Shown one piece after another: positions 17,218 to 30,587 of a stretch of DNA of 64,000 bases. The stretch spans positions 674,535 through 738,534 of the forward strand of contig DYGS01000001.1 of NCBI GenBank assembly GCA_020724585.1, in the 5' to 3' direction. Within the stretch, counting starts at the first letter, position 1, and every line of letters starts with the position of its first letter. The translations under genes and the position numbers were made by a program. The notes beneath the pieces were generated by a model. That model searched no databases, was not told the origin of the DNA, and saw only the letters and a program-made list of their open reading frames with translations. The stretch comes from Candidatus Microgenomatus sp. (GTDB lineage: Bacteria; Patescibacteriota; Microgenomatia; UBA8517).

Positions 17218-17340
17218 TAAGTCTTGGCGATGAGATATTTTCACACTCAGTTGCCCGAGGGCTATCGTCTCCGCTGTAGTGTTTTACTTCTTAAGTTCGG
17301 AATGGAACCTGCTTGCGCAGGCAAGTTAGGTAGTTCCACT
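17218..17340 (-). rRNA. rrf: 5S rRNA
   Basis: Minus-strand 'CCATTCCGAACTTAAGAAGTAAAACACTACAGCGGAGACGATAGCCCTCGGGCAACTGAGTGTG' aligns with the bacterial 5S loop B/C consensus (CCGAAC...GAAGTGAAAC...GGTAGTGTGGGG). Ends are approximate. Confidence 0.75.
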
Positions 17341-17726
17341 ACGCTAAAAATCACCAAGATTTAAGCACCCTGACAACTGAAGGATATTTTTTGTTAGAAA
17401 CAAACCTGTATTGTAAAAAACAGTGTTGCAAAGTCTGTTTTGACCAATCCGTACTAGGTAGGCTTAATCTCTTACGAGACTTCCACCGCCAGCCGGTTAT
17501 ACCCGATATTCTCTCGGGGGTCTACATCCCTTTCGGGAAACGAGTTCTAATCTTTGGGTGGGCTTCCCGCTTATATGCTTTCAGCGGTTATCCCTTAGGA
17601 ATATAGCTACCCGGCGCTTCTGCTGACGCAAAAACCGGCACACCAGGGATTCCTTCATCCAGGTCCTCTCGTACTGTGGACAACTCCCATCAAAACTCGA
17701 ACGATCCCACTGGATAGAGTCCGACA

Positions 17727-18452
17727 TTATTGTTACATAATTTAATTATGATTGGATTGGTTACCAATTCCCTATGTCACCATAGGGGTCCGACTATATC
17801 TTTCAAATCAATTATTAAATTGATGGATTTGGCGTATAGTCTGTGAGGATTCTAAATCAATATGAATTTAATATTTCTTCTCTAGAATACCTTCTTTTTG
17901 CAGTATTCATTAAATAAGAAATGTTTATTATTTTTTCAACTCCCTGCTTGGTTAAATGTTTTTTACTTAACACTAAGCCGATTACTTTAGCAAATCTATC
18001 AAAATTATCTTTTTTGATAAACAATTTATTTCTAAAAAAGGGAATAATTTTGTCTTTAATACTTTTAATATCTCTGACTACATATGCTAATGATTTGTCA
18101 TTAAAATCAGATTTTGAATTTGACTTAATATAGCCACACCCAAATCTTTTTTTGATTTGTTCTAAAATCATTAAACCGCTTGGATTTTGAGATATTTTAA
18201 AAAAGTATATAACTTGCCATCCAGATCTCGTTTCTTTTGATGGAACAATTCCAATATAAAACATTCCTTCACCTTCAACAAAACCTAAAATGTAATCATC
18301 CGATATTCTCATATTAATTTAGCCTTTCCTGCTGATTGACTCAGGTTGATTGTTATCACTGTATCTAGTATATAAACTATTTACTAGTAAATCAACATTA
18401 AAAGAGTGTTTCCAGCATATAGCCAAATTTATAGACAGCTTGGACTACTCAC
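17727..18452 (-). mobile_element. Group I intron in 23S domain V (near the I-CreI-type 2593-equivalent site) carrying a LAGLIDADG ORF
   Basis: The rRNA homology breaks after '...GAGACA' and resumes at 'TGTCGGACTCTATCC'. A 726-nt insert contains the ORF. Confidence 0.7.
17857..18312 (-). CDS. Single-motif LAGLIDADG homing endonuclease (151 aa)
   Basis: 'ILGFVEGEGMFYI' LAGLIDADG motif. The size and single motif are like I-CreI-family homodimeric enzymes. Confidence 0.8.
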   Translation of the reverse strand: MRISDDYILGFVEGEGMFYIGIVPSKETRSGWQVIYFFKISQNPSGLMILEQIKKRFGCGYIKSNSKSDFNDKSLAYVVRDIKSIKDKIIPFFRNKLFIKKDNFDRFAKVIGLVLSKKHLTKQGVEKIINISYLMNTAKRRYSREEILNSY

Positions 18453-18543
18453 TGTCTCACGACGTTCTGAACCCAGCTCGCGTATCACTTTAACGGGCGA
18501 ACAGACCGACCCTTGGCATCTTCTCCAACGCCAGGATGTGATG

Positions 18544-19523
18544 CACATCATTCTTCTGTTTCCAGCAGTATGTTTTTTAAAAAACATACCGTTAGACACA
18601 TGTGGATGTAGTGTCTAAAAGTGTAGACTATATCTTTCTCCAAATTCTTTATTCTGGAGATCGGCGTATTATATAACCTTTAGTTATATCTCTCCTTCAA
18701 GATAAAAAAATTATCTTTCAGGTTCAGTCGTTACGGGGTCAAAGGAACTTTGTATAACATAGATTTTACAAGATATTTCTTTATTAAGTTACTAAAATTC
18801 AAAACGCTTCTTGATGGGATGTGCAATATTGCATATCCTCCAGCATAGTGAATATTTGTATCAATTTCAAAGTTTTTGTATAAACAATTCTTTAAAACTA
18901 AATTTTCCATATCTGTAAAACTGGATGTACATAAATATAAACCAGAGTTATCTGTACGTTTATATCCATCATCCATATACCAAACAGCTAATGTAATTGG
19001 ATCAGTTATTAGATTTTCAATAGAACTTGGAATAACTTTCTTTCTACCTTCGTAAAAAGCTTTTCTGTATTCCTCAAAAATTGGTAAAGAATAAGTATCA
19101 AACCTTAATTGATTTGTTGCTTTTCTATAACTTCTTTGCTTAGATATTCTTATCTTATTGGTGACAAAGGGTTTTAATTCCTCATGTACCCAATAAACAT
19201 AGTCTTTCTGTTTTACAGATTGACATATCCTAAGCCTTGAATATTTTCCATTTTTTTCAAGTGTTCCATCTCCTAATATCTTACCAACAACAATTGCGTT
19301 TTGCTTTGTTGTTAAACTTATAATTCCTCGACTTCCCACGGTATTGTCCATGTATTCATGCTATAGCTAGCACAAAACAAAATATCATTTTTTTGTGCGA
19401 GATCTATAGTTATATTAAAATAACTATATACCGAAATATACACGAATACAAGAGGAGTTCACCGTTATTAGCCGATTTGCTCTAGAAATTACTTTCTAGA
19501 GGGCCCACGCTCTCATCGAGCGA
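18544..19523 (-). mobile_element. Group I intron in the 23S peptidyl-transferase region (between GUCGGCU and CAUCACAUCC) carrying a double-motif LAGLIDADG ORF
   Basis: A 980-nt insertion between conserved 23S exon sequences. Confidence 0.7.
18731..19351 (-). CDS. Double-motif LAGLIDADG homing endonuclease (206 aa)
   Basis: 'VGKILGDGTLEK' and 'AVWYMDDGYK' motifs. Confidence 0.85.
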   Translation of the reverse strand: MDNTVGSRGIISLTTKQNAIVVGKILGDGTLEKNGKYSRLRICQSVKQKDYVYWVHEELKPFVTNKIRISKQRSYRKATNQLRFDTYSLPIFEEYRKAFYEGRKKVIPSSIENLITDPITLAVWYMDDGYKRTDNSGLYLCTSSFTDMENLVLKNCLYKNFEIDTNIHYAGGYAILHIPSRSVLNFSNLIKKYLVKSMLYKVPLTP

Positions 19524-28723: not shown

Positions 28724-29910
28724 CGGTGTGTACAAAAGGCGAGAACGTATTCACCGCGGTATAGCTGACCCGCGATTACTACCAATTCCTCGTTCATGAG
28801 GCTGAATTTCAAGCCTCAATCCCCACTTAGAAGCCGTTTGATGGGATTAGCTCCCGCTTACGCGTTGGCAACCCATTGTCGGCTCCATTGTAGTATGTGT
28901 GTAGCCCCAGTCATAAGGGCCATGCTGACCTGACATCGTCCCCACTTCCTTCCACCATAAAGGCGGAATGTCTCCTGTGGATATTTAACACAGGATAGGG
29001 GTTGCGCTCGTTACCCCACTGAAGGGAACACCTCAAGGCACGAGCTGACGACGGCCATGCAGCACCTGTTATATCATCCAATATTTCTAAAGGATCCACC
29101 CGTGTTTCCACAGGCGTAAACGATATAATGTCAAGACTGGGTAAGGTTCTTCGTTTTGTTTCGAATTAAACCACATGCTCCACTGGTTGTGCGCCTTCCC
29201 GTCAATTCCTTTGAGTTTTAAACTTGCGTTCGTACTCCCCAGGCGGCCCGCTTAACGCGTTAGCTTACGCAGCGGAAAAATAAAATCCCACCGCTAGCAG
29301 GCAAAGTTTACGGCTAAGATTACGCAGGTCTCTAATCTGCTTCACTCCCTTAGCTGTCGTTCCTCAGCGTCAGATGTTTCCCAGCAATCTGCCTACGCCC
29401 TTGACGTTCCTTACGATATCAACGGATTTCACCCCTACACCGTAAGTTCCGATTGCCCCTAAAACCCTCTTAAAGTCTTGCAGTATTACACCCCTTCCCT
29501 CGGTTGAGCCGTGGTCTTTGAAGTATAACTTACAAAACCGCCTACGAAACGCTTTACGCCCAGTAAATCCGGATAACGCTTGCACCCCACGTATCACCGC
29601 AGCTGCTGGCACGTGGTTAGCGGGTGCTTATTCTTCCCGACATCTCTGTCGGGACAAAAGAAGTTTACGACCCAAGGGCCTTCATCCTTCACGCGATGTC
29701 GCGGCGTCAGACTTTCGTCCATTGCGCACGATTCCCGGTTGCTGCCACCCGTAGGTGTGCGGGCCGTGTCTCAGTCCCGCTCTGGGGGGTCATCCTCTCA
29801 AATCCCCTACCCGTCATAGTCTTGGTAGGCCATTACCCTACCAACTAACTGATGGGAAATAGGCTCATCCATCGGCGCGCAGTTAAGCGCTTTCATACAT
29901 GCTCTGCATG

Positions 29911-30000
29911 TAGTACACAGGAATTAGTACAAAGTACAAAGAAAAACAATTTTTGTGTTTCTAAGTACTAAGTACTCTGTACTATGTACTATGTACTATG
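29911..30000. repeat. Family-B repeat insertion in 16S (helix-10-like variable region)
   Basis: 'tagtacacaggaattagtacaaagtacaaagaaaaacaatttttgtgtttctaagtactaagtactctgtactatgtactatgtactatg'. Confidence 0.7.
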
Positions 30001-30106
30001 TGCAAAGCACATATCTCATACGGTATTAACCCATCTTTCGATGAGGTATTCCATACCACTGGGTAGATTCCTATTTTATACTCAGCCGTTCGCAACTAGC
30101 TCGCAC

Positions 30107-30184
30107 ATTGCTCGCAGTACACAGGAATTAGTACAAAGTACAAAGAAAAACAATTTTTGTGTTTCTAAGTACTAAGTACTCTGT
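30107..30184. repeat. Family-B repeat insertion in 16S (helix-6-like variable region). Near-identical to the 29911 copy.
   Basis: The same ~75-nt sequence is present a second time within the 16S 5' domain. Confidence 0.7.
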
Positions 30185-30587
30185 ACTATGTACTTCGTGC
30201 AACGCACGAACTCGTTCTACTTGCATGCCTAAGGCACATCGCTAGCGTTCATCCTGGACCAGGATCAAATCCTCAAATAGTGATTTTAGGAATTTGACGA
30301 TTACCTAAAATCTTTGGAATTGACTTCCTAATCACATCTTGAATCTGTAGTCACGATGACTACAGTATTACTGTCATATACATTTAATTTTCAACGAACA
30401 AAAATCATAGTACGCAGTATTTAGTACACAGAAAAACAAATCAAATATAATAAGTTAAGATCCTCTATATACTAATCACTGGGTGCTAAAAAAATGAAGT
30501 TATCAATCCCGTTTTTGACGGAACGAGTCAACCTTTAAACTTGTAAAAAGTATTATAGCATAGCAAAATTGAAGTGCAATAATGAAA

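Follow-up and report, generated by a model that had tools for sequence, protein, structure and literature searches.

Three LAGLIDADG-bearing inserts in the rRNA genes of a Microgenomates bacterium: two predicted group I introns and one predicted IIC-like group II intron

Insertion sequences in the ribosomal RNA (rRNA) genes of bacteria of the Candidate Phyla Radiation (CPR, or Patescibacteria) were reportedly described by Brown et al. in 2015. Across hundreds of CPR rRNA genes, Tsurumaki et al. found insertions in 48% of 16S and 82% of 23S genes, with up to 16 per gene and a mean total length of 1075 nucleotides (nt) in 16S and 1327 nt in 23S (standard deviation ~1100; Tsurumaki et al., 2024, J Bacteriol, PMC11270868). 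The proteins encoded there are predominantly LAGLIDADG_1 of ~180 amino acids (aa) and LAGLIDADG_2 of ~210 aa, the former concentrated at 16S-1400 and 23S-1917/1931/1952/2593/2604/2657; group II-like inserts with LAGLIDADG_1 occur at 16S ~1400 only, and the inserts at 23S 2604 are group I introns with LAGLIDADG_1 (PMC11270868). One CPR enzyme, I-ShaI from another 23S site, cleaves its target (PMC11270868). Here, we analyzed a 64,000-nt stretch from Candidatus Microgenomatus sp. (GenBank assembly GCA_020724585.1, contig DYGS01000001.1, positions 674,535 to 738,534; hereafter the window, numbered from its first letter), in which three inserts with LAGLIDADG genes interrupt the 23S and 16S rRNA genes. 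We conclude with good confidence that a single CPR rRNA gene set is here interrupted by three mobile ribozyme introns, two of group I and one of group II.

Group II introns that encode LAGLIDADG open reading frames (ORFs) are said to have been described from fungal mitochondria by Toor and Zimmerly in 2002. Such fungal introns were also treated by Mullineux et al. (2010, as cited in PMC11270868). In bacteria, a group II family of this kind is rns-1396, a IIC family with a LAGLIDADG homing endonuclease (LHE), which combines a 5' terminal linker with a single-motif LHE in domain IV and has no EBS2 (exon-binding site 2); the linker is reported both for rns-1396 and for fungal LHE families (Liu et al., 2026, Genome Biol Evol, PMC13190283). 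Bacterial members of rns-1396 were found only in four Thiotrichaceae genera (PMC13190283), and the Thiotrichaceae introns are attributed to Salman et al. (2012, as cited in PMC13190283).

All rRNA and transfer RNA (tRNA) genes of the locus lie on the minus strand (Rfam, ARAGORN). A scan of the whole window with Rfam at gathering thresholds called no intron, and the LSU and SSU models aligned 'end to end' through local jumps; such a scan conceals the interruptions because the models leap over inserts locally. Exon blocks were mapped by cmscan on sub-windows and by BLAST against E. coli rrnB, and rRNA positions below follow E. coli, with a slash marking the point of insertion. The 23S gene consists of exon 1 (19524-22564, E. 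coli 1-2511; Rfam LSU, 1825.8 bits), exon 2 (18451-18543, 93 nt, E. coli 2512-2604; 64.3 bits by cmscan, 86% identity by BLAST) and exon 3 (~17430-17724, its 3' end approximate, E. coli 2605-end), the last located by cmscan model positions 2652-2912 at 17440-17703 and by a BLAST match to E. coli 2605-2760. The 16S gene consists of exon 1 (28723-30280, E. coli 1-1402; Rfam SSU, 1183.7 bits) and exon 2 (~27723-27847, E. coli C1403 to the 3' end), which includes the anti-Shine-Dalgarno sequence CACCUCCUUU. Alignment alone places the 16S junction at 1402/3, that is, at 28722/3 and 27847/6 (cmscan, BLAST). The inserts measure 980 and 726 nt in 23S and 875 nt in 16S, and each holds one intact LAGLIDADG ORF.

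Joining the 23S exons yields the universal sequences CGAUGUCGGCU/CAUCACAUCC at 2511/2512 and GUGAGACAGU/UCGG at 2604/2605, and joining the 16S exons yields UACACACCGC/CCGUCA. Moreover, Logan contigs from four sequencing runs matched the window at 100% identity and together crossed all six exon-insert junctions, with at least one contig at each. Since these contigs were assembled independently, the inserts are not assembly chimeras. The original prediction, made from the letters of the window, had given the three lengths and the insertion sites, including those in domain V of 23S, and had assumed both that the exon blocks rejoin and that the inserts are not chimeric; the mapping and the contigs bear it out on each count.

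Both inserts of 23S are genuine group I introns, an assignment that has comparative support. Intron B (17725-18450, 726 nt, minus strand) interrupts 23S at U2604/U2605. Its internal guide sequence (IGS), GCUGUCU at 18433-18439 (intron nt 12-18), pairs with exon AGACAGU and leaves a U.G wobble at the splice site, at U2604. Further core elements are P3 (18422-18426 with 17829-17833), P4 (18412-18417 with 18329-18334), P7 (17835-17841 with 17792-17798), P9 (17770-17787) and an omega-G at 17725; the 3' end reads ...AAUAAUG/, and the R/S-like elements CACAGACUAUAC and AAGAUAUAGUC are present. A scan of metagenomes with an alignment of homologues of the intron B endonuclease returned 80 loci, and both junctions were found in 53 of them. 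All 40 distinct relatives carry the insert at the 2604 site: the exon ends in ...GAGACAGU/ in 37/40 and the intron has a terminal G in 38/40, the three relatives without U at -1 all having C. Over 41 distinct sequences, P7 and P9 were 98.9% paired, with compensatory double changes in 7/14 pairs, against 30-45% pairing in slid controls.

Intron A (18544-19523, 980 nt, minus strand) lies at 23S U2511/C2512, bounded by GGCU/ and ...GAUGUG/. It is IA-like, with an IGS GGCC within 19501-19507, P2 at 19480-19501, P3 (19471-19476 with 18660-18665), P4 (19460-19465 with 19338-19343), P6 (19325-19337 with 18735-18746), P7 (18724-18729 with 18626-18632), P8 at 18638-18659 and an omega-G at 18544. Other assemblies yielded seven homologues, all inserted at this very position. 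With the ORF deleted, the RNAalifold consensus of these seven shows P1 with a U.G pair, P2, P3, P4, P5, P6 and P8, as well as a hairpin within the P1 loop, and 25/56 pairs have compensatory changes. P7 was not predicted by RNAalifold, though its GACU/AGUC strands are conserved in the seven homologues. Two conserved hairpins stand between P7 and P3', which we take to be the P7.1/P7.2 layout of subgroup IA.

The 16S insert is of another class. The original prediction, under which every insert should fold as P1-P9, holds for both 23S introns, with their U/omega-G boundaries and covarying cores; it fails for the 16S insert, which has no U/omega-G boundaries and in which we recognized domains V and VI, a branch-point A and an exon-binding site 1 (EBS1). 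This insert, intron C (27848-28722, 875 nt, minus strand, 16S C1402/C1403), is best described as a IIC-like group II intron carrying a LAGLIDADG gene, as judged from its sequence and that of its relatives. Its 5' exon ends in C rather than U, and the insert ends in AAU rather than G. The elements are a 5' terminal linker (28682-28722, 41 nt), a conserved 5' motif GCGCAUGGCAG (28671-28681), an EBS1/delta loop GGGCGGU (28512-28518), domain V (27880-27912) with a CGC triad, domain VI (27851-27875) with a bulged A at 27855, and the 3' end AAU. A weak Rfam match to domain V lies 32 nt upstream of the 3' junction. The CGC triad is typical of IIC introns.

A scan of genomes with an alignment of homologues of the intron C endonuclease recovered 80 species-level loci, mostly labelled Patescibacteria or Microgenomates. 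Across 64 distinct 3' regions, domains V and VI were 98.1% paired, with compensatory changes in 14/20 pairs. Domain V is a helix of 9+4 base pairs (bp) with a 2-nt bulge, in which all 13 pairs together were 99.8% paired and seven showed compensatory changes, and all seven pairs of domain VI showed compensatory changes. None of the 64 sequences departed from the CGC triad and its G.U wobble, from the 2-nt bulge or from the bulged A at -8 (27855). Upstream of the ORF, ~350 nt (D1-D3) align throughout the family. The linker ahead of the GCGCA motif is 41 nt in intron C compared with ~9 nt in most relatives. We noted that nine members of the family (L020, L027, L031, L039, L049, L060, L066, L068 and L080) have another sequence at the place of domain V and keep domain VI and the 3' end; in these, the catalytic domain may be degenerate or replaced.

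The loop heptamer provides a further line of evidence. It is complementary to the exon junction, covering the final 5 nt of exon 1 and the 2 nt that open exon 2; the complementarity is perfect in 59/70 loci and holds at no fewer than six of the seven positions in 68/70, whereas controls with foreign targets gave 0/46, 5/68 and 0/33. Four classes of exon and site have their own heptamers: ACACA/CC goes with GGUGUGU, ACUCA/CC with GGUGAGU or GGUGGGU, CUCAC/CG with (C/U)GGUGAG, and ACCGC/CC, the class of the window, with GGGCGGU. On this covariation we interpret the pairing as the contact between EBS1 and intron-binding site 1 (IBS1) together with an adjoining contact to the 3' exon. The covariation of the EBS1/delta loop with the four variants amounts to sequence-level evidence for RNA-guided exon recognition by group II introns that lack a reverse transcriptase. 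No reverse transcriptase or maturase was found in intron C by Pfam, its sole ORF being the LAGLIDADG_1 gene. Intron C thereby falls in the LHE-bearing subset of group II introns, and the absence of a reverse transcriptase does not exclude it from group II.

We then compared the three ORFs, all on the minus strand. Intron B encodes, in its P6 loop, a 151-aa LAGLIDADG_1 protein (17857-18312) with a single motif, GFVEGEG (Pfam 5.2e-17; half-domains of I-OnuI and I-SmaMI in PDB at 1e-30 to 1e-37; 381 homologues). Intron A encodes, likewise in the P6 loop, a 206-aa LAGLIDADG_2 protein (18731-19351) with the motifs KILGDG and WYMDDG (Pfam 6.7e-43), which matches I-SceI at 1e-14 over residues 11-205; both termini of this ORF are encoded by P4'/P6 strands. 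Intron C encodes, in domain IV, a 164-aa LAGLIDADG_1 protein (27867-28361) with a single motif, GLTDGEG (Pfam 2.6e-23; I-PnoMI and others in PDB at 2e-37; 118 homologues). The LAGLIDADG scores in Pfam are 63, 147 and 83 bits, respectively, against cut-offs of 23-25, and a conserved catalytic acidic residue is present in each motif. Pfam and PDB thus agree with the original prediction of one single-motif and one double-motif ORF in 23S and a third ORF in 16S near position 1400. Its description of the three endonucleases as unrelated is, however, incorrect: homology links the 151-aa protein to the 164-aa one (33% identity, E 5e-18), and each corresponds to one half (domain) of I-OnuI-type enzymes. 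Domain V and the opening nt of domain VI (27867-27912) also code for the C-terminal ~15 residues of the 164-aa protein, RWMRESRLSSGNAL, which makes this region of the 16S intron dual-coding. In many relatives (L005-L084), the ORF likewise ends inside or past domain V.

Collectively, these features suggest how the locus might work. The three introns interrupt universally conserved functional centres, namely the peptidyl-transferase region of 23S (L2511 and L2604) and the decoding centre of 16S (S1402). Each would be transcribed inside the pre-rRNA and remove itself by ribozyme chemistry, splicing restoring a continuous rRNA. For the group I introns, this step would depend on a P1 helix that sets a U.G wobble at the 5' splice site, on binding of guanosine in P7 and on the omega-G; for the group II intron, the EBS1/delta loop GGGCGGU would pair with ACCGC/CC, and domain V would catalyse the reaction together with the bulged A of domain VI. 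In homing, double-strand-break repair would copy the intron into an intron-less rRNA allele after cleavage by the enzyme. The enzymes would be two single-motif homodimers and one I-SceI-like monomer.

Several points weigh against an interpretation as three mobile ribozyme introns. Intron B scores below the gathering threshold of Rfam Intron_gpI (RF00028; 34 bits against 50), and intron A gives no RF00028 match even at E <= 1. We attribute both misses to the ORFs, which split the cores (the ORF of intron B places 456 nt in L6). In intron C, the Rfam group II D1-D4 models find no match at E <= 1, domain V has 33 nt and a loop of 5 nt where the canonical form has 34 nt and a GNRA tetraloop, and the intron starts with CAAGUAAG rather than GUGYG, its GYGCN-UGGCAG motif following only after the 41-nt linker. 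Splicing and ligation of the three introns are, moreover, what we infer from these cores and boundaries. In an organism that has a single rRNA operon, the intron-less allele needed for homing must come from another cell. Finally, the ORFs could be retained for other reasons, such as a maturase role or ends locked in ribozyme helices. Activity of the endonucleases is likewise deduced from their sequences, and present-day mobility, suggested by the intact ORFs, is to be read as a prediction.

Mobility is indeed where a rival account is strongest. The introns might still splice and have become fixed and vertically inherited, their ORFs being kept by overlap with helices or by a maturase role. The coding ends are constrained as described above for the 206-aa ORF (both ends in P4'/P6) and the 164-aa protein (C-terminus in domains V-VI), degenerate ORFs occur in several family members, and the S1402 position is common to two relatives, L085 and L087, consistent with vertical descent. 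Yet the catalytic acidic residues and full-length domains are kept in the window, and L085 has a different set of 16S inserts, with an extra LAGLIDADG_3 intron and no hairpin inserts (see below), which implies gain and loss over a short evolutionary distance. Endonuclease phylogenies, furthermore, group by site and not by host, and one CPR enzyme is active (PMC11270868). We consider loss of mobility unlikely, though by no means far-fetched. The same three inserts could instead be intervening sequences (IVSs) that are cut out by RNase III-type processing and left unligated, so that the rRNA is fragmented yet functional. Excision of IVSs that fragments 23S rRNA is known in bacteria and is suspected for short CPR inserts (PMC11270868). 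However, the three inserts sit in single-stranded or universal core (16S 1402/1403, 23S 2511 and 2604) and not at variable helix tips, and excision of an IVS would make no use of their conserved ribozyme cores, with compensatory changes, or of guide sequences that follow the exon; we regard this explanation as very improbable.

A uniform group I assignment, the 16S insert included, has in its favour that LAGLIDADG genes typically ride in group I introns and that both 23S inserts are of group I. By contrast, the 16S exon ends in C and the insert in AAU, neither P7 nor R/S elements were found in the insert, and it has covarying domains V and VI, a bulged A, an EBS1 loop and D1-D3 that align family-wide. 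A group I identity for the 16S insert was thus ruled out by its boundary nucleotides, the missing core and the covariation of D5, D6 and EBS1, and we see hardly any chance that all three inserts are group I introns. It is similarly implausible that the inserts are assembly artefacts or that the locus is a decaying pseudogene copy. Metagenome assemblies do often break or mis-join in rRNA genes, and many related contigs end within 16S. Against this, contigs of the four runs between them crossed all junctions at 100% identity, universal sequences and high Rfam scores are retained in the exons, and dozens of other genomes carry the same inserts in the same positions. Two group I introns and one group II intron, all three mobile, thus remain our preferred reading.

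Upon a closer inspection of the intron C family, we noted that its members differ in their exact site. Among the 72 relatives with both junctions recovered, 63 have the intron at A1398/C1399, and in seven it lies one nucleotide further downstream; the remaining two, the window and L083, have it at C1402/C1403. The same C1402/C1403 site is used by L085 (complete genome CP129472, 75% endonuclease identity) and L087 (81%), and all four loci (window, L083, L085 and L087) have the loop GGGCGGU. When we searched the relatives for the 5' exon end of the window, TGTACACACCG, only L083 had it besides identical copies of the locus; it was from this search that most family members were seen to sit 4 nt upstream. 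In the sub-lineage of the window genome, L085, L087 and L083, intron C is thus placed 4 nt downstream of the family's usual A1398/C1399, and its EBS1 differs accordingly. The family can move by 1 or 4 nt inside one of biology's most conserved sequences. The 4-nt shift with a matching EBS1 is not described in PMC11270868 or PMC13190283, and it appears to be unreported so far, though no text search was aimed at it.

One possible account is 'intron sliding', in which an endonuclease-mobilized group II intron moved by 4 nt while hairpin elements recently colonized the rRNA helices of the same genes. We hold this combined scenario to be doubtful. Under it, EBS1 would have been rewritten at three positions, from GGUGUGU to GGGCGGU, restoring the pairing. 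It is speculation to tie the 4-nt distance to the 4-nt cleavage overhang, or central four bp, of LAGLIDADG enzymes. If the central four bp were CCGC (1399-1402), the two intron sites would be the two edges of the cut, and sliding, if true, would link a repair outcome at the DNA level to retargeting at the RNA level.

The hairpin elements are five further inserts of ~85-175 nt without an ORF, which belong to two repeat families, two copies being in 16S and three in 23S. The original prediction had listed the three ORF-bearing introns correctly and had missed these five inserts along with a tRNA-Ile remnant (see below). The 16S element is an 86-nt hairpin of GUAC heptads present in two copies, 97% identical, at 29905-29990 (helix 10) and 30109-30194 (helix 6). 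cmscan reports them as inserts of 94 and 99 nt, the arms are tandem AGUACNU heptads, and the fold has a z-score of -6.8. The 23S element is an AU-rich hairpin of ~120-130 nt with three copies, at 22051-22223 (after position ~289), 21647-21797 (position ~543, H25) and 20855-21019 (positions ~1163-1184, H45). These copies are 61-91% identical and account for three large expansions of 23S in a MAFFT gap map against E. coli; their palindromic nature is read from the alignment of the three copies. L085, whose 16S is ~88% identical, is without both 16S copies, and the 5' half of its 23S is without such expansions. Elsewhere in the window, no other full copies of either element were found, and only the AGTACTT heptad motif recurs. 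The hairpin repeats suggest elements akin to miniature inverted-repeat transposable elements (MITEs) that insert into the tips of rRNA helices, and identical elements in several helices would give a handle on the origin of rRNA expansion or IVS segments. Separately, we noted that the heptad motif AGTACTTAGTAC (at most one mismatch) occurs 16 times in the window compared with 0.19 expected, at sites that include 12368, 22757-22815, 30416 and 37318-37343; among them are a 31-nt inverted repeat in the spacer between tRNA-Ala and 23S and a tandem run of heptads at 37318-37343.

In its overall layout, the locus appears to be the only rRNA gene set of a Microgenomates-type bacterium of the CPR/Patescibacteria, with a conserved, oppositely oriented coupling-protein gene separating 16S from tRNA-Ile-tRNA-Ala-23S-5S. 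The 16S and 23S genes are 5.16 kb apart. This gap contains tRNA-Ala(UGC) at 22823-22896 and tRNA-Ile(GAU) at 24997-25071 (both on the minus strand; ARAGORN, Rfam), and the remaining contents named by the original prediction (a TraD-like ATPase gene, an inverted-repeat cassette and two small ORFs) were also confirmed. The 5S gene (17222-17358, minus strand) is a borderline Rfam match (RF00001, 39.4 bits against a gathering score of 38) with an internal insert of ~29 nt. The 3' end of 5S is overlapped by one copy (17205-17234) of a 30-nt direct repeat, whose second copy, 90% identical, lies 50 nt downstream (17155-17184).

The coupling-protein gene (25492-27618, plus strand, 708 aa) is convergent with 16S and encodes a TrwB/TraD/VirD4-like ATPase (Pfam TrwB_AAD_bind 1.7e-9 and TraG-D_C; NCBIfam match). 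It adjoins 16S at the same place in L085 and L087, with 76-77% identity, and is therefore a stable feature of the lineage rather than a recent insertion; this synteny in two related genomes ruled out its arrival with a young mobile element. The 16S gene is probably transcribed as a separate unit. Counts from a promoter and terminator scan of 22500-30700 did not rise above those of shuffles, so the scan is uninformative on transcription units.

In the spacer between tRNA-Ile and tRNA-Ala, a 1221-bp cassette (23698-24918) is flanked by 83-nt inverted-repeat arms (23698-23780 and 24836-24918, 99% complementary) and encloses a gene for a 248-aa membrane-anchored protein (23842-24588, minus strand). 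L085 has no cassette, and its tRNA-Ile and tRNA-Ala are ~550 nt apart. The cassette could be invertible or mobile, or could form a stem for RNase III-type processing. Its reading as an insertion sequence was dropped as the ORF is not recognizable as a transposase or invertase, and no further full copies of the 83-nt arm were found in the rest of the window. One independent contig ends inside a cassette arm. The two small ORFs, also on the minus strand, encode 84 aa (23135-23389) and 81 aa (23451-23696), and the corresponding spacer of L085 holds a counterpart that is 32% identical to the 81-aa ORF; searches of Pfam and NCBIfam gave no credible family for these two or for the cassette ORF. A truncated tRNA-Ile remnant (~24934-24990, minus strand) lies 6 nt downstream of the intact gene. 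It keeps the acceptor stem and T arm and is without the D arm and the 5' side of the anticodon stem. The T-arm half of the remnant is 93% identical to the tRNA-Ile of the relative, compared with only 78% for the intact tRNA-Ile of the window.

Related genomes carry further inserts of their own. The extra 16S intron of L085 is ~1080 nt long (L085 3025-4102), follows model position ~800 and has a LAGLIDADG_3-like ORF of 282 aa. In L087 (1502-2164), a LAGLIDADG_2 ORF of 220 aa lies downstream of the S1402 intron, near the 3' end of 16S. As to hosts, most named relatives of the three endonucleases, and the nearest 16S sequences, are labelled Microgenomates or Patescibacteria, with the exception of several metagenome-assembled genomes (MAGs) titled Gammaproteobacteria, Saccharibacteria, Omnitrophota or 'bacterium'. 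Ten contigs with the 16S intron (L005, L012, L016, L017, L025, L033, L057, L076, L078 and L018) come from MAGs titled Gammaproteobacteria, Nevskiaceae or Omnitrophota, and their 16S flanks resemble Microgenomates-type sequences. These rRNA contigs are likely to be mis-binned.

How, then, does this locus compare with known systems? That interrupted rRNA genes occur in CPR was stated by the original prediction, in agreement with PMC11270868. Its further view that the window is a dense case does not stand: the window carries ~1070 nt of insertions in 16S and ~2200 nt in 23S, and by the figures of PMC11270868 this load is ordinary for CPR. The host group, the rRNA positions (hot spot 16IS9 and 23S 2604), the intron class at each site, the lengths of LAGLIDADG_1 (~150-180 aa) and LAGLIDADG_2 (~210 aa), the short ORF-less inserts at the H25 and H45 IVS sites and the unlinked 16S and 23S genes all match that survey. 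It lumps 'position 1400', whereas the window intron is resolved to C1402/C1403. The 23S 2511 site is not named in its text, and the site names gave no text match in its supplement. One hairpin element repeated over several helices of one rRNA gene is seen in the window and is not described in PMC11270868. The locus is thus a textbook one for CPR, one more example beside the hundreds catalogued and conceptually no change; only the displaced site of the group II intron and the recurring hairpin inserts might perhaps repay more work.

The enzymes have counterparts further afield. Along its whole length, the 206-aa protein aligns with I-SceI of the yeast mitochondrial omega intron (LSU 2449), and the 151-aa and 164-aa proteins match one domain of the I-OnuI family, among enzymes of the I-OnuI, I-SmaMI and I-CreI type. 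In these systems as in the window, introns of group I or II occupy functional centres of rRNA. The window enzymes differ in their sites (2511, 2604 and 1402), their bacterial host and their low identity, and the single-motif ones would need to act as homodimers. Fungal mitochondrial LAGLIDADG group II introns share with intron C a DNA-homing enzyme in place of a reverse transcriptase, an rRNA host gene and 5' terminal insertions, and differ in a IIB1 backbone, mostly double-motif enzymes, other rRNA sites and a mitochondrial host.

Like intron C, the rns-1396 family targets the 16S decoding centre, has the CGC triad and a branch-point A, and combines the 5' terminal linker with a domain IV that carries a single-motif LHE. 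Its likeness to the Thiomargarita introns is drawn from descriptions of the family rather than from direct sequence comparison. The contacts identified in intron C are EBS1 and the contact to the 3' exon, and EBS2, reported as absent from rns-1396, was not looked for in intron C. By contrast with rns-1396, intron C has a CPR host, a site shifted by 4 nt with EBS1 GGGCGGU, an unusually long linker of 41 nt, and an ORF that runs through domain V into domain VI. In PMC13190283, the bacterial range of such introns is confined to Thiotrichaceae, whereas one scan here returned 80 species-level loci, so that the group II plus LAGLIDADG family is abundant in genomes labelled as CPR.

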